NCBI RefSeq assembly: GCF_964204865.1
Contig: NC_135263.1
Coordinates: forward strand, 2,852,001 to 2,916,000
Source of the DNA: Styela clava
Taxonomy: Eukaryota
DNA length: 64,000 nt
Direction of reading: 5' to 3'
The position numbers and the translations under genes are program-made. Positions 41,383 through 64,000 of the stretch are shown here, piece by piece. Below the pieces are notes generated by a model that did not search any database, was not told where the DNA came from, and saw only the letters and a list, made by a program, of their open reading frames with translations. How positions within the stretch are numbered: position 1 is the stretch's first letter; each line of letters starts with the position of its first letter.

Positions 41383-44000
41383 TTTTTTTTTTTTTTTGTA
41401 TATATTTATTAATATATAAAACACAGTTGATCGGTACATCTACAACATTATTAATCACTAATCATGAACAATACACAATTCATCATATAAGATAATCAGT
41501 AATTGTATCATCAAATTTTCCATTTTTGATCATGTTTCTTTATTTTGCCATTTTTATATGCAATAATCCGTTCAATTTCCCTCACTTCATACAGATATGA
41601 GGTAAAAACATTAAAAAGCGGTTTCTTTTTCTGTATCTTACAACGATATAGATAAAACCGGGCAGCAAGAAGTATACAGTTACACAATTTGTTATAAAAA
41701 TTACAAACATATCCCAACATGCAGTCTCTCTTCGAAAAGTTAAAATTAATCCCTGTTTTTGAGTATATCCACATGTTTAGAGTTTCCCAAAACTGTTGAA
41801 CAACTATACAATCATAGAAAAGGTGGCTGATAGTTTCAACATTGGAATGACAGCATTCACATGACTCTGATGGAACAAGTTTAAATTTGTACAATCTATC
41901 GTTTAGTACTATAGCACCATGGAACATTTTTACATGAAAAGATTGCAATTTGGTTTTAATAGTACAATAAAAGATATCCATATACAATTTATTCCAATTA
42001 AAATCACTCTCTAAAATAATAAAATCTGCCCATTTTTTTCTTGATTTATCAGGGGATATAAATTTGATCAAGTTCAACCATTCATAGATACTTTTATTTA
42101 CTTTTTCTGATTCGAATGTTTCAGAAATAAAATGAGATACATTCTCTTCAGGGTCACTTAATACACTAAAATCAATACAGTTTCCAATATTGCATAACCA
42201 ATCGTCAGGTAAAACTCCAGTGATGCGATAATAATTTACATACTCTACATCACTATATTGCATGTCATATTTTTCAGTCAACTCTCTATAAGTAAACAGA
42301 ATACCCGCATTTGATAAGTGTCTTACTGCTTTTATACCATGTTCATACCAAGATTTGATAAAAAATTGTTTTCTAGCATAAGAAATACTTTTGTTGTACC
42401 ATATAGGTTGGTCAAAAATTGACATTTTCCAATCAAAAAGCACATTTTTACAGAAATACCAGTTTTTAAATACATTTCGAATGGACGTTAAAGGTAAATG
42501 CTTCAGAACATATGAATTTGAGCTCAATTTTCCTTCAAGCATTGCTTGAAAACAGTATTGGCCAAGCACTTCCATCTCAATCAATTTCCACACTGGGTTA
42601 AGATCCTCATTTAAAAGTGTTTGAATGTATTTCATTTTCTGGGCAACAATGAAATTTTTTATATCTATCATATTAATACCCCCTTTTTCTTTGGGGCCAA
42701 TCAAGGTATTTCGTTTGATCCGCTCCCAAGTTGAACCCCATACTAATACATATATAGTTCCATTCAATTCAGTTAAAAAACTTTCAGGAACATCAATTGG
42801 TAAAACAGTTGCATGATATATTATCTGGGGTAGAATGAGAGACTTAATAATGCAAATCCTCCCCAAAAAAGTCAAATTTCTTGTTTTCCACACCTGGAGT
42901 AGCTTTTTGACTTTGTCTAATATTTGTGGAAAATTTTTGCTGTATATACCCTTCATTTTGTTTGACAGAATAACACCCAATATTTTAATTTTATCGTTCC
43001 AATTCAGAACATAATTACTACTAATCGGGGGGGGGGGGGGGGGGGGGGCGGGGTTCAACCTTAAAGCCAATATACATTGCTTGGCATTTTGCTATATTGA
43101 TTCTGCACCCAGATATAATTCCAAAAATATTTGCAGTATGAAAAAGGGCATCAATACTAGATTGTAATCCATTGGTTATTACAGTTACATCCTCAGCAAG
43201 CATAGAAATTTTCATAGAAATATTCCTCCATTTTATGGGTTCAATTTTGGGGTTTTGCCTGACCATGTTTGCAAAAATTTCGATTACTAATAAAAATGTA
43301 AGACAGCTGAAAGAGTCACCTTGCCTTAAGCCTCTATGGATTCCAAAATCATCTGAAATATGAGCATTATTTGTGACACAACACTTGATATCATTGTAAA
43401 GAATTTTAATCCATTTTATGAATTTAAGATCAAATCCAAATATATGAAGAATTTTGAACAAGAAATCCCATTTCACACTATCATACGCTTTTTGTATATC
43501 AAGAAAAATTAAAGCCCCAGGCAATGATTCAGCGACAGTTAGGTCAATTACATCACAAATCAGTCGAATATTATCCCCTATATTCCTCCCTTTAATAAAT
43601 CCAGTTTGATCAAGATCGACAATTTTGTTGATCACATTACTCATTTGGTTTGTTAATGTTTTACTCAATATTTTATAGTCCACGTTTAATAAAGTTATTG
43701 GGCGATAATTGCTTATACGATGTTCAGTTTGTCCTTTCTTAGGAAGAAGGGTTGTTACTCCCCTTTTTGTGTTTTGCTCAAAGTCCCTTTAACAAATGAG
43801 TGATTGTAGCTAGCCATCAGAAGATGTTTAATATCTTCCCAAAACACCTTATAAAACTCTGCTGGAAGACCATCAAGTCCGGGGGTTTTGTCAGATTTCA
43901 TGGATTTCAAAGCCTCGAAACAAGCGCCCTCTGAGATAACACCAGGACATAAGTCTCAAACTTCAGGTTCCATGTGTGGTATTCTGATCCCTTGCAATAT
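41383..44000 (-). mobile_element. 5'-truncated copy of the L1/Tx1-clade element at 56751-62184
   Basis: Poly-T at 41383-41397, 3'UTR and the C-terminal two thirds of ORF2 are colinear with the intact copy (roughly 90% identity by eye). Homology stops at ...gatcccttgcaatat (44000). Candidate TSD ACGGATTAT at 41368 and 44028. Confidence 0.95.
41511..43990 (-). pseudogene. Disrupted ORF2 (reverse transcriptase + zinc-binding domain) of the truncated L1/Tx1 copy
   Basis: Track ORFs 43021-43683 and 41511-43070 are two frames of one ORF2, split by a poly-C expansion. Catalytic LADD is changed to LAED, and there is another indel near 43765. Confidence 0.92.
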
Positions 44001-56200: not shown

Positions 56201-56800
56201 GGACTGAAGATTTCATTGGCAGGTATGGATCTCTAATGTGAATAAAACAGCGGATAATAACGCAATCGCATTGAAATTGTCGTTTTTATCAAAAAGTAAG
56301 GAATGTTCCTTTAACTGCAAAAAAGGCATAGTGGCTATTTCATCCACGGAAAAAGTTTTGTAAAACACGAATCAATCTGAGGGGTTTTACTTGTTGCTAT
56401 TACAAATTAAAAATATGAGAGTTTCGAATCGACTGGATTTTTCCCTGCGATATTAAATGGTAGCGGTATAAGATGCTGTGAATCAAATATTTTCGGTATA
56501 TCTGTAAGATATATTAACTGATGTAATTTATCTGTCTGTATGTGTTATTTTATAGGTCAGCACACAAAGTCGTTATTTAAATGCGCAATCTCTCCCGTCC
56601 GTTAATTGTCCGCTACACGCGTGTCTGAGCGCTTCCTCCACCCCCTCCCCCACTTGCATTGTCTTCCTCGTCGCCACATAGACACAGACACAGTCCTTTC
56701 AAAAGTACTTGGGAACCACGAACCCAAGTGACGATGAATGAGGCACCAAATCTTCCGCCCCGGGCAGCACGTAGAGTTCGCATTATTTGAGACCTATATT

Positions 56801-58249
56801 ATGAATTCCTATTCTACAGCTGTGAAACATGGAGTGGCGGAAAAAGTTCCGATTGCTCGAGATAAGAGAAAAGCTGTCAACATGGCCATACCCAGACCTC
56901 ATTGTTTACAAATGAAGTTCGAAAGAAATCATCCGGATGTGTTGGAAAAGGGACTGCGAGCGACAGCGAAAAATATTGTACTAAAAGGCGTTACAACTAA
57001 GCAAATCGTTAGTATAGCAGTAAGACCGTACCATACAGTCGATGTCACATGCCGCACTAGAGCAGAGATACTAACACTGGATAAATACCTGAAACAGCAA
57101 AATATAGCTGGATTTAAATGGTTTTTATACGTTGAAGAAAATACAACAGTGAATATATCATGGATTCCAGGGCATATTAAAAAACAGCAACTTCGTTCTA
57201 CATTGTTAGAATTTGTAAAAGAGTTGGATTCTGACATCCAGGAAGCAAAGGATGAAGATGGCATTTTAAATGGATGGATGTATGTATCAGTGCCTACAAA
57301 CCAAATTCAGCAACATCCCATACCAAGTTTCATCTATGTAGAAGGGTGCATGATATCTGTTAAATATCGCGGGCAGCAACAAACATGTATGAAGTGTAAT
57401 GAAGTTGGACACTTTAAATTCGAATGCCCAAAGCAAAATAGATTTATAAACCCTTTGAAAAAGCAAGACAGATTCACCGACAAACAAACATTGATAAGAA
57501 TAAATGATAAAACACAAAGTGAAGGATTGACCACTGATTACAATGATGAAAATGCAGTCAAGCGTGACCACCATAACAATGCTGATAACAGTACTCCAAG
57601 TGTTTTCACTTTAGCAGATTTTATGCCAACTACAGACGAACCTAATTCAAATGATGACAAAAGTGCTGGGTCGAACGATCGTGACTTGGAGACTTCAAAT
57701 ACACCAATGGAGGTCAATGAACAATCTGGAGTTAAAAGATGTAGATCGCCTGATCAGAAAAAACATTTGGCAAATATTAGGCCAAGACTGGATAGCGTAA
57801 ACGACATTGATATACCAAAATGTATTGTATGCGAAGACCAACTTGAAATAATGGACGACAACGCTAAAGAAGCTATCTGCTACAACTGTGAAATCAGGTA
57901 TGAGATTATTAAGCAATGCTGTACTGAAAACGGATACTTTGCTGCAAGTGAAGAGCAAATCAAAAATAGAAATGTGAAATGCAATGTCTGTAACACAGCT
58001 ATGCCACTTACACCTTGTTGTAATGGTATTGGTGAAATATTGGAAAATGATGTTGCTAGGTGTACCACTTGTGAAAATTTATTTCTGAAGTGTTGTTGCT
58101 CTGCTTTGAACACCCTACCAGTGGAGAATGGTTTCGATAAATGCCATAGCGTAGGCTGTGGTAGCTACATAATGCATTGTCCTTGTGGTAGCGTTTCGTA
58201 TACCGATGAATCTTTAGAATGCAGATGTGGAAATACTCTAAATGGCTGA
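56801..58249 (+). CDS. ORF1 (gag-like nucleic-acid-binding protein, ~482 aa) with a CCHC knuckle and a C-terminal Cys-rich array
   Basis: MNSYSTAVK start (SYAxAV-like motif), CMKCNEVGHFKFEC knuckle, and 21 Cys in the last ~140 aa. The upstream ATG at 56738 is in host sequence. Confidence 0.88.
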   Translation: MNSYSTAVKHGVAEKVPIARDKRKAVNMAIPRPHCLQMKFERNHPDVLEKGLRATAKNIVLKGVTTKQIVSIAVRPYHTVDVTCRTRAEILTLDKYLKQQNIAGFKWFLYVEENTTVNISWIPGHIKKQQLRSTLLEFVKELDSDIQEAKDEDGILNGWMYVSVPTNQIQQHPIPSFIYVEGCMISVKYRGQQQTCMKCNEVGHFKFECPKQNRFINPLKKQDRFTDKQTLIRINDKTQSEGLTTDYNDENAVKRDHHNNADNSTPSVFTLADFMPTTDEPNSNDDKSAGSNDRDLETSNTPMEVNEQSGVKRCRSPDQKKHLANIRPRLDSVNDIDIPKCIVCEDQLEIMDDNAKEAICYNCEIRYEIIKQCCTENGYFAASEEQIKNRNVKCNVCNTAMPLTPCCNGIGEILENDVARCTTCENLFLKCCCSALNTLPVENGFDKCHSVGCGSYIMHCPCGSVSYTDESLECRCGNTLNG

Positions 58250-61200
58250 TATTAAATTGAAAATAGCCTCTTTAAATACAGGAGGTATACGAGAATATTC
58301 AAAAAGACGAGAAATTTTTTTGTTATTGAAGAAGAAGGGATTTAATCTTGTCTTCCTACAAGAAACACATAGCAAACAGAATGACGAGAAACAATGGCTG
58401 AGAGAATGGGGTGGTTCTGGAATTTTTTGTAATTACTCGACCAATTCAAGAGGTTTGTGTATTCTATTCGGAAACAATATTTCATTCTCACTGCACACTC
58501 AACATAATGATCCTCAAGGAAGATTTCTCGTGGCCGACATAACTATCGGTGTTGAAAGACTTATTCTGGCAAATATGTATGGACCAAATAACGATAATCC
58601 TAATTGTTTTTTGGAACTACTTCATACTCTTGAGAGCCAACAGAGCCAGCAATTCATAGTTGGAGGTGACTTCAATGTAGTCCTTGACAGTAAAATGGAT
58701 AAAGTGGGCGGCCGAATAAACCATAAAAATAATAAATCAGGACAGATGTTGCATAATATTATGGAAGAACTGAATTTACAAGATTCCTTTAGAGTAATAA
58801 ATCCAAGCAAGAAAGCATACTCCCATTTTCATAAACAATCAAAAACTGCCACCCGAATTGATATGGTGCTAATTTCTCAACATTTATTGCAATATCAGTG
58901 CAAAGCCGATATTATACCTTGTGTTTTGTCTGACCATTCTATAGCATCGTTAATGATTGATATCAATCCTGTCCCCAGAGGTACCGGATACTGGAAGCTG
59001 AACACTTCCTTGTTAAATGATGAGAAATATGTTACTCAAATTAGACAAGTAATCCAAAATACCATAATGGACCACAGCATGGAATACGTTGATCCAAATT
59101 TTATGTGGGATACAATGAAATTAATAATTCGTGGGGAATCAATAGCCTATGCAAGTAGGAGAAAAAAGCTGTGTGAAAAAAAGATGAAAGATCTTGAAAT
59201 ATTAATATCTTCGCTAGAAACCAAGTATGCCAGTCACCAATCTGATGACAATATGCAACAACTGGAAATTGCAAAGCAGTCTCTAAATGAATTGTTGAAG
59301 CAAAAAACTCGTGGCTACCTGATTAGAAGTAAAATTAAATGGGCTGAAGAAGGGGAACATAATACAAAATATTTTTTCGGTCTTGAAAAGAGGCATAAAC
59401 AAAGGACATCTATTGCACAACTGTATGAAAATGATAGAATAATCTCAGATCAAGAACAAATATTGAAATGTATCAAATTATTTTATACAGAATTATACTC
59501 GGAAACATCATCACATTATGTTGATATAGAAGAAATATTGCAAGGGATCGATATACCACACATGGAACCTGAAGTTTCAGACCTATGTCCTGGTGTTATC
59601 ACAGAAGGTGCTTGTTTCGAGGCTTTGAAATCCATGAAATCTGACAAAACACCCGGGCTTGATGGTCTTCCAGCAGAGTTTTATAAGGTGTTTTGGAAGG
59701 ATATCAAACATCTTTTGATGGCTAGCTACAATCATTCATTTTGTAAAGGGACTTTAAGCAAAACACAGAAAAGAGGATTAATAACTCTTCTTCCTAAGAA
59801 AGGACAAACTGAACATTGTATAAGCAATTATCGCCCAATAACTTTATTAAACGTGGACTATAAAATACTGAGCAAAACATTAACAAACCAAATGAGTAAT
59901 GTAATCAACGAAATTGTTGATCTTGATCAAACTGGATTTATTAAGGGGAGGAATATAGGGGATAATATTCGACTGATTTGTGATGTGATTGACATAACCG
60001 TTGCTGAATCATTGCCTGGGGCTTTAATTTTCCTTGATATACAAAAAGCATATGATAGTGTGAAATGGGATTTCTTGTTCAAAATTCTTCATATATTTGG
60101 ATTTGATCTTAAATTCATAAAATGGGTTAAAATCCTTTACAATGATATACAGTGTTGTGTTACAAACAATGGTCATATTTCAAATGATTTTGTAGTCCAT
60201 AGAGGCCTAAGGCAAGGTGATTCTTTCAGTTGTCTTACATTTTTACTGGTAATTGAAATTTTTGCAAACATGGTCAGGCAAAACCCAAAAATTGAACCCA
60301 TAAAATGGAGGGATATTTCTATAAAAATTTCTATGCTTGCTGATGATGTGACAGTAATGACCAATGGATCAAAATCTAGTATTGATGCCCTTTTTCAAAC
60401 TTCAAACATTTTTGGGATTATATCTGGGTGCAAAATTAATATAGCAAAATGTCAAGCAATGTATATTGGCACTAAGATTGGAACCTCCCCGATTAGTAGT
60501 GAATATGGTCTGAATTGGAACGATGAAATTAAAATATTGGGTGTTATTCTGTCAAACAAAATGGAGGGTATATACAGCAAAAATTTTCCTCAAATATTAG
60601 ATAAAGTCAAAAAGCTACTTCAGGTGTGGAAAACAAGAAATTTGACGTTTTTGGGAAGGGTTTGCATTATTAAGTCTCTCATTCTACCCCAGATATTATA
60701 CCATGCAACTGTTTTACCAATCGATGTTCCTGAAAGTTTTTTGACTGAATTGAATAGAAATATATATGTTTTTATATGGGGTTCAACTTGGGAGCGGATC
60801 AAACGAAATACATTGATTGGCCCCAAAGAAAAGGGAGGTGTTGATATGATAGATATAAAAAATTTTATTGTTGCCCAAAAAATTAAATTCATTCAAACAC
60901 TCTTGAATGAGGAAGTTAATCCAGTGTGGAAATTGATTGAGATGGAAGTGCTTAGCCAATACTGTTTTCAAGCATTGCTTGAAGGAAAATTGAGCTCAAA
61001 TTCATATGTTCTGAAGCATTTACCTTTAACATCCATACGAAATGTATTTAAAAACTGGTATTTCTGTAAAAATGTGCTTTTTGATTGGAAAATGTCAAAT
61101 TTTGATCAACCTATATGGTACAACAAAAGTATTTCTTATGCCAGAAAACAATTTTTTATAAAGTCTTGGTATGATCATGGTATAAAAGCTGTAAGACATT

Positions 61201-62027
61201 TAGCAAATGTGGGTAATTTGTTTACTTATAGAGAGTTGACTGAAAAATATGGCATGCAATATAGTGATGAAGAGTATGTGAATTATTATCGCATCACTGG
61301 AGTTCTACCCGATTATTGGTTATGCAATATTGGAAACTGTGTTGATTTTAGTGTAATAAGTGACACTGAAGAGAATGTATGTCATTTTATTTCTGAAACA
61401 TTCGAATCAGGAAAAGTAAATAAAAGCATCTATAAAAAGTTGAACCTTATCAAATTTATATCCCCTGATAAATCAAGAAAAAAATGGACAGATCTTTTGT
61501 ATTTAGAGAGTGATTTTAATTGGAATAAATTGTATATGGATATCTTTTATTGTACTATTGAAACTAAATTGCAATCTTTTCATGTAAAGCTATTTCATGG
61601 TGCCATAGTACTAAACGATAGATTGTATAAATTTAAACTTGTTTCATCAGAGTTATGTGATTTCTGTCATTCGAATGTTGAAACTACTGACCATTTCTTC
61701 TATGATTGTATAGTTGTCCAACAGTTTTGGGAATTTCTGAACATGTGGATATATTCAAAAACAGGGATTAATTTTAACTTTTCAAAGAAAGATTGCATGT
61801 TGGGATATGTTTGCCAATTCTATAACAAATTGTGTAATTGTATACTTCTTACTGCCCGGTTTTATCTATATCGTTGTAAGATACAGAAAAAGAAACCACT
61901 GTTCTATGTTTTTACCTCATATCTTCATGAAGTGAGGGAAATTGAGCGGTTCATTGCACATAAAAATGGCAAAATAAAGAAACATTATCAAAAATGGAAA
62001 ATTTTAGGATATACACACAATAATTGA
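58242..62027 (+). CDS. ORF2 polyprotein: APE endonuclease, reverse transcriptase, C-terminal zinc-binding domain (1261 aa)
   Basis: SLNTGG, LQETH, GGDFN, RID and SDH (APE). WKLN, PGLDG, YRPITLLNVDYK, DIQKAYD, GLRQGD and LADD (RT). CDFC..ETTDHFFYDC. Confidence 0.97.
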   Translation: MADIKLKIASLNTGGIREYSKRREIFLLLKKKGFNLVFLQETHSKQNDEKQWLREWGGSGIFCNYSTNSRGLCILFGNNISFSLHTQHNDPQGRFLVADITIGVERLILANMYGPNNDNPNCFLELLHTLESQQSQQFIVGGDFNVVLDSKMDKVGGRINHKNNKSGQMLHNIMEELNLQDSFRVINPSKKAYSHFHKQSKTATRIDMVLISQHLLQYQCKADIIPCVLSDHSIASLMIDINPVPRGTGYWKLNTSLLNDEKYVTQIRQVIQNTIMDHSMEYVDPNFMWDTMKLIIRGESIAYASRRKKLCEKKMKDLEILISSLETKYASHQSDDNMQQLEIAKQSLNELLKQKTRGYLIRSKIKWAEEGEHNTKYFFGLEKRHKQRTSIAQLYENDRIISDQEQILKCIKLFYTELYSETSSHYVDIEEILQGIDIPHMEPEVSDLCPGVITEGACFEALKSMKSDKTPGLDGLPAEFYKVFWKDIKHLLMASYNHSFCKGTLSKTQKRGLITLLPKKGQTEHCISNYRPITLLNVDYKILSKTLTNQMSNVINEIVDLDQTGFIKGRNIGDNIRLICDVIDITVAESLPGALIFLDIQKAYDSVKWDFLFKILHIFGFDLKFIKWVKILYNDIQCCVTNNGHISNDFVVHRGLRQGDSFSCLTFLLVIEIFANMVRQNPKIEPIKWRDISIKISMLADDVTVMTNGSKSSIDALFQTSNIFGIISGCKINIAKCQAMYIGTKIGTSPISSEYGLNWNDEIKILGVILSNKMEGIYSKNFPQILDKVKKLLQVWKTRNLTFLGRVCIIKSLILPQILYHATVLPIDVPESFLTELNRNIYVFIWGSTWERIKRNTLIGPKEKGGVDMIDIKNFIVAQKIKFIQTLLNEEVNPVWKLIEMEVLSQYCFQALLEGKLSSNSYVLKHLPLTSIRNVFKNWYFCKNVLFDWKMSNFDQPIWYNKSISYARKQFFIKSWYDHGIKAVRHLANVGNLFTYRELTEKYGMQYSDEEYVNYYRITGVLPDYWLCNIGNCVDFSVISDTEENVCHFISETFESGKVNKSIYKKLNLIKFISPDKSRKKWTDLLYLESDFNWNKLYMDIFYCTIETKLQSFHVKLFHGAIVLNDRLYKFKLVSSELCDFCHSNVETTDHFFYDCIVVQQFWEFLNMWIYSKTGINFNFSKKDCMLGYVCQFYNKLCNCILLTARFYLYRCKIQKKKPLFYVFTSYLHEVREIERFIAHKNGKIKKHYQKWKILGYTHNN

Positions 62028-62128
62028 TTATTTTTATATGATGAATTGTGATTATGTAGTTTCTATGAATATTGATTAATAATGCTGTAGATATTGTAGA
62101 TGTATCGATTAACTGTGTTTTATATAAT

Positions 62129-62138
62129 AATAAATATA

Positions 62139-62184
<46 letters not shown>
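62129..62184 (+). other. Polyadenylation signal and 43-nt poly(A) tail of the retrotransposon
   Basis: AATAAA at 62129-62134 and an uninterrupted A run at 62142-62184. Confidence 0.92.
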
Positions 62185-62186
<2 letters not shown>

Positions 62187-64000
62187 GGCTCGTCTAGCTT
62201 TCGGCTTTGATTGTATGCCGTGTAGATACTGGCTGCCGTCAGATCAATCAAATCTAAATAATAAATATATATCTAATCGTCCGACCCATGTACAAGTTGA
62301 TCTATTATTAGATGTTTATATGTTAATGCGAATATTTAAAATTTTCTACTTTGACATTTGCGTAGGCCGTATAGGCGTAGACGTAGAGTATACAAAATTC
62401 TAACACAGGTTATTTTGAAGAAGAAGAAATTAGAAAAACTACTACTCAATTCGGCTGTATTTTCCTAACACCAAAGTTCCGTTTACCAATAAAGTAATGA
62501 AAAAGAATTACCTGCAAAAAACTCCAAAGCGTACAATGTTCTGCGATGGGGATTATTGCAATTTATGCAACATCTCTCGATTTTGCATACCCAGTCCATG
62601 AGCAATAAAACAGCTGTTACAATTAGTCTCAGGATAGCGGATACTACAAGAAGCCAAAACACGACGAGTTCATCAACTTCTTGTTCTAAAATAAGATTTA
62701 TCATTTAAATTCAATTCATATATTCTGCAGAAATGATTAGATGCGCACGATTTAAGCATTGTCACATATAAAGTAACGCTGTAGCAATGGTTAAATTAGC
62801 TCGAAGAGTCCTAGATTAGTTAGAAGTATACAAATATGCCTTACCGAACTCTTTGCATTCATTATTCTGACCAAGATCAACGCAAACTGTGCAATTTCCT
62901 TTGGTTACAGTACAGTTGACTTCGTTCCCAGCTCCGCAGTAATCAGATAATCCTTGGGTTATTGTATCATTCACAGTAACCAGCCATCTATTGGAGAATA
63001 TGGAGTAGATTATCATAATCAGGTTTCCTACAGGTACTACTCTATGCGCGATTTTAGATTTCCAGTCATTGCCACACTTGCAATATTTCGTTGAGCAGTT
63101 GAACTCGAAACAGCATAAAGACGGCATGCTTTTTAATTTAGGATATTTTATGTAATAAATACCTGTTAATACGAATAAAGTATTTAGTTTCCAAATATGA
63201 TTTATTGGAAACTCATGCATGGGTTAAATAGGGCAGTGGGGCCAGCTTTTTCTAACGAACCTGATATTTCATAACAAGAAATTTTAAAAAATCTCGCGAC
63301 TCAAGGACATTCTCCAAGACTAAACGGCATGTAATACTTTAATGGTCGTAAAATTGCATGACTAAGATATATTCATCATTTTTACATTATATCATGAACT
63401 CGAAGTAAAAAAGCTGCATTTGTTTATCATCAGCGAATTTTTGAAATCGCAGTGTGGCTTAACTTAAGCAAAAAATGAGTTCCTAAATTTTTACGTGGTA
63501 ATACTTCCCGCATATGCAATTACTATGGGGCAATATTCCAACATCAAATATTGCATAAAAAAAGTTATTTTAGATTTTTTATATAAACCAGTTACGCGAA
63601 ATAGATTTTGATTTTCGTGCCACCCAGTTTTGGGCGGTGACCCGTAGGCTGGGAAACATTGATAACATAGTGTATATCTAATTTTAATGTGAGTATATAT
63701 TGCCACGAATTTGTAGAAGAATTGCATTGGCTTGCAAAACTAGAAATTTATATATTGAACTTCACTAAATATGAAAATTTTGGAAACTATTTTACACTAT
63801 TTTTAAAGTGTTTTTTTTTTAACTACATGCAAACTTTTCTTTAAAAATGTTATACAGACATCAAACCGTGCACTTTATATAGATAGAAAATTCCTAACAC
63901 GCTCAAATAACTCATTTTTCAGTGCCAAATACATTTTATATTTTCGAGAACATATTGTACTAATCTAGATTTAGTAAAAATTGATGCCTTGCATATGGCA

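Follow-up and report, generated by a model that had tools for sequence, protein, structure and literature searches.

The DNA examined here is a 64,000-nucleotide stretch of the Styela clava genome (the window; positions count from its first letter), and the question it raises is why a retrotransposon should end the first of its two reading frames in a dense run of cysteines. Positions 57821-58249, the last 142 codons and the stop of ORF1, hold 21 Cys. A sequence-only reading had grouped these into five zinc-ribbon-like modules, and that grouping is exact in the 142-residue translation (Table 1). Measured against the Cys frequency of ORF2, this content has a binomial p of ~1e-10, and on this value and the dN/dS ratios given below we reject the tail as an artefact or the product of chance.

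The element and the layout of its ORF1

Two open frames, an N-terminal APE endonuclease, a reverse transcriptase (RT), a C-terminal zinc motif and a poly(A) end mark the element, to judge by its sequence, as an intact LINE of the L1/Tx1 type, an assignment accompanied by RT trees that comprise elements of the Styela clava genome only. The best PDB match of ORF2 is human L1 ORF2p (E = 5.7e-102, residues 6-919), and ORF1, whose stop is at 58247-58249, overlaps ORF2 by 8 nt. The copy has no target-site duplication and lacks 11-16 bp relative to paralogous empty sites, which place its 5′ junction near 56760. About seven such sites lie on the same contig, the element being situated within a local repeat (window positions 56450-56758 and 62185-62480). 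The first in-frame ATG of ORF1 (56738) is inside flanking DNA and related copies start just upstream of the ATG at 56801, the likely start codon; the 482 residues counted from it fit the numbering of the sequence-only reading. Elsewhere in the window, on the minus strand at 41383-44000, lies a sister-subfamily copy, 5′-truncated, frameshifted and 90.6% identical.

Table 1. Features of the element, in window positions
Feature	Position	Strand	Remarks
L1/Tx1-type non-LTR retrotransposon, full-length	56760..62184	+	both ORFs open
ORF1, 482 aa	56801..58249	+	RRM-like region, CCHC knuckle, linker, Cys-rich tail
Probable tandem RRM region	56894..57373	+	approximate bounds; weak profile matches
Gag-like CCHC zinc knuckle, single	57386..57427	+	Pfam zf-CCHC, E 6e-4
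Linker	57428..57820	+	acidic (pI 5.0), fast-evolving, poorly conserved
Module 1	57821..57889	+	Cx2C-x15-Cx2C, generic zinc ribbon; x14 in most relatives
Module 2	57917..57991	+	CC-x19-Cx2C; x20 in most relatives
Module 3	58016..58072	+	CC-x13-Cx2C; sole module retained by both truncated forms
Module 4	58091..58159	+	CxC-x14-Cx4C; best-conserved non-Cys residues
Module 5	58178..58228	+	CxC-x11-CxC
ORF2, 1261 aa	58242-62027	+	APE endonuclease, reverse transcriptase, zf-RVT (Pfam)
Poly(A), 43 nt	62142..62184	+	after short 3′ UTR with AATAAA

The element was not found in any sequencing run recorded as RNA; contigs of three runs that we guess to be RNA start at 56760-56762, run unspliced from ORF1 into ORF2 and leave the flanks uncovered, which is a hint of transcription. 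A Styela clava protein at NCBI is 96% identical across 80% of ORF1. The NCBI model P0004 stops after module 1 and continues with a tail in a different frame, so that the annotation hides the domain. In a near-identical copy (L008:3516-3520), 101 bp are deleted behind module 1; for the 101-bp deletion of the C17 copy we rejected a spliced intron as the explanation, since it is one base off GT-AG and microhomology is present.

Type I (Jockey-like and Tx1-like) ORF1 proteins, in the Khazina and Weichenrieder classification as presented in PMC4120745 and PMC5203782, consist of one or more RRMs followed directly by one or more CCHC knuckles. The ORF1 studied here appears to share this layout, with an N-terminal RRM-like region, one knuckle and an ORF2 of the APE-RT-zf type, but adds a 140-residue, 20-Cys C-terminal domain. 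The RRM part is probable: the profile matches (CELF1 tandem RRMs at E 0.02-0.05, DAZL RRM at E 0.1, others weaker, within a range of E 0.02-2) fall upstream of the knuckle, at the expected place. The knuckle scores 20.3 bits against a Pfam cut-off of 20.8, slightly below it, with the exact motif present and its C, C, H and C invariant across alignments. RRM-like region and knuckle together are basic (pI 9.3). The knuckle and linker that the sequence-only reading placed ahead of the tail are both recovered. A basic KR-x-x-SP motif in the linker (57734-57751), similar to motifs in five of nine full-length ORF1s checked, is possibly a nuclear-localisation or phosphorylation site.

Conservation and predicted structure of the tail

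We compared 38 tails, which fall into 31 clusters at <60% identity, nine of them from the Styela clava genome. Twenty of the 21 Cys positions are conserved, with Cys in 74-100% of the rows that have a residue there, a range inflated and in part circular insofar as 24 outside proteins were picked by a Cys-rich profile. The middle Cys of the CCC run is the exception: none of the 35 other rows with a residue at that position has Cys. The five-module pairing of the sequence-only reading stands, corrected in one point: with 20 rather than 21 conserved Cys, five Cys4 sites are indicated. Relatives of the tail are mostly 17-36% identical, yet the spacing is almost fixed over diverged families (Cx2C-14/15-Cx2C-9-CC-19/20-Cx2C-8-CC-12/15-Cx2C-6-CxC-14-Cx4C-6-CxC-11/13-CxC). 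Outside the Cys, module 4 keeps an Asn in 29 of 33 rows and a Pro in 30 of 32, and module 2 an aromatic residue (Phe in 21 of 34).

The outside proteins were those that a profile of 14 tails matched at E ≤0.001 among 1.84 billion; eight are complete ORF1-like proteins that include a knuckle and 16 are fragments, and among the 20 of 24 that were looked up, those of Ciona intestinalis make up three clusters. Free of the circularity of the Cys profile, a search of the Styela clava genome with the N-terminal part alone gave 79 matches, part of which were opened; these included further tail-bearing families (L087, L088, L095) and tail-less ones (L089, L091, L092, L097, L098). The tail alone had 30 matches in the same genome among 32 scored candidates. 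Word-index protein searches, which are insensitive and define no taxon range, matched the tail region to P0004 only; with the tail alignment as query they had no match among longer proteins, and with the full ORF1 alignment they matched two proteins. ESM Atlas searches returned sub-0.9 leads or nothing, no phage match was found, and scanning metagenome loci with P0019 gave no confirmed locus.

The tail also evolves under constraint. Its dN/dS is 0.10-0.14 in six of six unsaturated pairs (Nei-Gojobori; bootstrap upper bounds 0.20-0.38), two more distant pairs being saturated or nearly so, one of them at 0.32; a ratio below 1 had been proposed as a check in the sequence-only reading. The RRM-CCHC core gives 0.06-0.13 (three unsaturated pairs) and the linker 0.34-0.69 (three pairs). 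By these ratios the tail is constrained as strongly as the RNA-binding core, and such purifying selection means function without telling which.

AlphaFold2, run on the 38 rows, predicts a single ordered unit rather than loose beads (pLDDT 89.8, pTM 0.71, no low-confidence segment); this model supersedes one from 14 rows with a pLDDT of 66. It is nearly all-beta, with twelve short strands and one helix, and the strands flank the Cys pairs. About five zinc-ribbon-like modules, paired as proposed, are supported, and five zinc ions in putative Cys4 sites are predicted. Foldseek found nothing significant with the model (best E 0.059 in the PDB and 0.072 among viral models), nor did VIA (best Z 3.4, for LysW, rmsd 3.0 over 47), where the searches covered the PDB, PDB representatives and viral models and absence of a match does not prove a new fold. 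No Pfam family rose above its cut-off for whole tails (14 tails and 24 proteins), modules 2-4 of the window's tail had no Pfam match, and the vicinal CC and the CxC knuckles of modules 2-5 had no catalogued match. With no significant match in Pfam, the PDB or fold searches, the tail is, as had been claimed, not a standard ORF1 domain. Nor is it a PHD finger: the 14 tails and 24 proteins gave no PHD match, one fragment gave an 11-residue match to PHD_2 (E 0.044), and the Cys4-His-Cys3 pattern is missing, the ligand columns having no His except in one row at one column.

What likeness there is centers on module 1 and, weakly, module 3, which have the generic two-knuckle shape of LysW, IBR, EMI1-ZBR and LSD1-type ribbons (VIA Z 2.9-3.5, rmsd 2.5-3.6, 43-49 residues) but score below significance or cut-off throughout. 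Isolated first modules drew many generic ribbons from Pfam, weakly, including Zn_ribbon_Top1 and TOP3B, with one above the A2L ribbon cut-off; IBR_1 was the commonest (four of six families, E 5e-4 to 7e-3, all below cut-off). An IBR domain binds zinc at two sites and has a His among its ligands (C6HC); here only module 1 resembles its first half and the conserved His is absent. LSD1-type fingers are spaced Cx2C-x14-Cx2C, a spacing that most relatives have and the window's family misses by one residue (x15). A specific kinship of module 1 to these fingers lacks support, since zf-LSD1 matched none of six isolated first modules and none of the 14 tails and 24 proteins.

A kinship with TMEM55/PIP4P likewise finds no support: comparison with the host TMEM55 gives E 0.34, with a score equalled or bettered by 123 of 500 Cys-fixed shuffles, PF09788 (TMEM55) does not match the ORF1 tails in Pfam, and the TMEM55B structure ranks sixth in Foldseek (E 0.33, TM 0.21, rmsd 9.8) and is absent from the VIA list. 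In their cytosolic part, TMEM55A/B (PDB 8oqh, 9qm9) do have tandem Cys4 beta modules in a rigid unit, and the host protein shares one spacing exactly, the CxC-x14-Cx4C of module 4 and of the second TMEM55 ribbon; its ribbons 1 and 2 line up in register with modules 3-4. The tail differs in having five modules, links of 6-9 residues instead of 17 and no transmembrane part, with no significant sequence or whole-fold match. Neither the LSD1 nor the TMEM55 likeness goes beyond Cys spacing. The host TMEM55/PIP4P match (L151, G000:C2:13768418-13769230) falls within a single open frame of 287 aa, apparently intronless.

Trimming, loss and replacement among related families

The modules are alike in little beyond their Cys (best hhalign probability between modules 61%), and we reject a recent tandem expansion. 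To call the tail an expanded tandem array, as was first done, is misleading, given this low likeness and a five-unit layout common to Ciona elements; because it is common to them, the five-unit domain must be old. Truncated forms drop whole modules, keeping either 1-3 (active families) or 3-5 (L010, L028, L030). Since these natural truncations fall at whole modules, with module 3 kept in both, they support sequential Cys pairing.

An RT tree of 28 rows, from which near-identical, short and broken RTs were excluded, joins five-module and modules-3-5 families in one clade (100/100) and places a tail-less clade as sister to the modules-1-3 families (100/99). A single grouping of all tail bearers is rejected (p-AU 0.019, the groups having been chosen from a quick preliminary tree). 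A tree of the N-terminal part of ORF1 is in agreement with the RT tree, and the tail tree, poorly resolved, is compatible with it. The simplest reading of these trees is that the five-module domain would be older than the Styela-Ciona split, which dates back several hundred million years, and was later trimmed or lost. Spread of the tail by transfer between lineages is possible: ORF1 exchange does occur, as in one chimeric copy (L087), whose ORF1 is 97-98% identical to that of L041 and whose RT is ~0.96 changes per site away, an ORF1/ORF2 exchange between histone-targeting families.

Among 20 loci chosen by RT alone, three of them 5′-truncated, none gave a tail match; five have an esterase-like ORF1 end and the others a low-complexity end. 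L122-L126, which are of the L1/Tx1 type, combine a CCHC knuckle in ORF1 with an SGNH/GDSL esterase-like C terminus (e.g., L122:1196-2947; Pfam Lipase_GDSL_2 reaches E 9e-8 in L122 and matches three of the others less well). In the account of PMC3905857, esterase ORF1s are given for CR1, RTEX and Penelope only, without structural RNA-binding domains. The C-terminal position of ORF1, which in related families is taken by an SGNH esterase or lacks a folded domain, behaves as an exchangeable accessory slot. The PHD and esterase ORF1s of CR1, L2 and RTEX (types III and IV) likewise have a folded accessory domain gained or lost between lineages; the Styela tail differs from them in being all-Cys without His, in having five sites rather than two and no enzyme fold, and in belonging to an L1/Tx1-type element.

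Other variants were seen along the way. L127-L136 and L141, members of another clade, have two CCHC knuckles, and most of them a short conserved TSTIGNTP-like motif in a low-complexity tail. Positions 149-189 of the L126 ORF1 weakly match RBD_ZCCHC3_2nd (Pfam E 0.0017), ZCCHC3 being akin to type I ORF1. Split ORF1 pieces on C13 were considered as an intron-containing domesticated gene and rejected on account of stops and inserted repeats.

Possible roles of the tail

With about even confidence, we suggest that the tail is a protein-docking surface, for RNP assembly or for a host factor. The basic RRM-CCHC core would bind and package the RNA of the element, the established role of type I ORF1 proteins. 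The five predicted Cys4 ribbons would stack as one rigid, beta-rich unit, and the tail, held on its flexible linker, may bind a protein partner, either further copies of ORF1 while the RNP assembles or a host factor that would serve transport or protection. Its advantage would be real yet dispensable. We favor docking over other roles because the core is basic, the tail acidic here and its charge unconserved: the window's tail has 10 K+R against 20 D+E (pI 4.5), and those of relatives range from pI 4.5 to 9.1, several or many being basic at pI 8-9. With no conserved basic surface across this range, a shared nucleic-acid or anionic-lipid role is disfavored. The recurring weak fold neighbors are LysW, IBR/ZBR ribbons and TMEM55B; LysW and the IBR/ZBR ribbons are protein-binding, an analogy that is weak because all the fold matches are insignificant. 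TMEM55B binds a peptide motif (10.1101/2025.08.19.670962), and self-association is described as the most widely shared ORF1 property (PMC5940361).

That the ribbons instead form an extra nucleic-acid-binding or chaperone arm, keeping hold of single strands of RNA or DNA while target-primed reverse transcription proceeds, is unlikely but deserves consideration. Bacterial topoisomerase I has five C-terminal zinc ribbons with a nucleic-acid role, and its C-terminal domain ranks second in Foldseek (E 0.069), with PriA also among the fold matches; the TM of 0.18 and rmsd of 17 speak against a real correspondence. The weak Zn_ribbon_Top1 and TOP3B matches, the conserved aromatic of module 2 and the basic tails of many relatives would suit such an arm, but the tail of the window's family is acidic, charge is not conserved, and for RNA binding the protein already has its RRM-CCHC core.

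The sequence-only reading had also put forward targeting. Five-module copies lie at unrelated, dispersed sites, some with 14-16-bp duplications. All modules-1-3 families with readable 5′ ends, which form one RT clade, interrupt histone genes directly behind the first codons: H2B at nucleotide 39-40 (five copies, with a 19-bp duplication in three of three with both ends read), H3 at 31-35 (five copies) and H4 at 32-33 (three copies). The histone-inserting Tx1-like families (L041-L044, L047, L087, L088, L094, L095, L103, L104) sit within the first 13 codons in sense orientation, mostly in the histone cluster at G000:C8:7.3-8.1 Mb. Copies beyond the cluster carry a histone 5′ piece along, which suggests transcription from the histone promoter. 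In L133, a family with no tail match, the poly(A) ends just ahead of the H3 start, between nucleotides -14 and -23, which makes this a second site of insertion into histone genes; tandem insertions stacked on one another also occur (L133:7134, L088:2249, L103:7292). Full-text literature searches found no histone-gene-specific Tx1 families.

The tail might on these grounds steer insertion, by reading chromatin or by anchoring the RNP at a given locus, for instance the histone gene cluster, but as a main role we find this improbable. Families with the tail are both dispersed and specific, those with the same three-module layout have three different targets, and L133 reaches H3 5′ UTRs without a tail match, so that specificity is unlikely to depend on the tail. 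In Tx1 elements it is mainly the endonuclease that sets the choice of target (PMC4494074).

It is quite improbable that the tail binds membranes or lipids, doing the job proposed for the ORF1 esterase. The SGNH/GDSL domain of L122-L126 occupies the same ORF1 position, which is no proof of common function, and the ZfL2-1 esterase does bind anionic lipids (PMC3905857), but that binding is driven by positive charge while the tail here is acidic, and no FYVE, C1 or PHD-like match to the tail was found. Least credible is that the tail was captured from a host gene (TMEM55/PIP4P, the IBR region of an RBR ligase, or an LSD1-type protein) and has kept the function of its donor, since the shared module 4 spacing, the register of modules 3-4 and the IBR_1 matches of module 1 stand against shuffles that score as well or better, a tandem geometry unlike that of TMEM55B, the missing IBR His and the finding that every own-genome match that was opened belongs to a retrotransposon ORF1, whether whole or broken.

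Protein docking remains our preferred role, and the tail can be set against what has been described. The ORF1 domains catalogued in PMC4120745 and PMC5203782 are RRM, CCHC, coiled coil, CTD, PHD, esterase, zf/lz, DUF4283 and HTH, and the supplement of PMC5203782 gives only zf-CCHC variants for Ciona savignyi ORF1s. Full-text literature searches found no description of an ORF1 tail of five ribbons. Repbase has Ciona L1 families (PMC5203782 supplement), and tail sequences may be deposited there or the tail remarked upon in its reports or in other papers. The suggestion of an undescribed ORF1 class is partly upheld: the accessory domain is uncatalogued, and as an addition to a probable type I ORF1, common in one ascidian group rather than restricted to this copy, it is better named an accessory domain than a class of its own. 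The tail is apparently an undescribed accessory domain on a type I ORF1 in one group of ascidian L1/Tx1 elements. A fuller proposal, which we offer as tentative, would have an undescribed five-ribbon domain of new fold, ancestral in this group, docking a host factor, with the number of modules retuned with lifestyle and the three-module form going with histone-gene targeting.

The role of ORF1 accessory domains such as PHD and esterase is a long-standing question. In this tail, the predictions offer with confidence a multi-zinc structure without a solved counterpart, vicinal Cys-Cys knuckles included. The Styela clava genome holds closely related, recently active families that have the same RRM-CCHC core with five, three or no ribbons or with an esterase, and the set of five-, three- and no-ribbon families, together with H2B insertions that can be scored at one base, makes direct swap and deletion tests possible.
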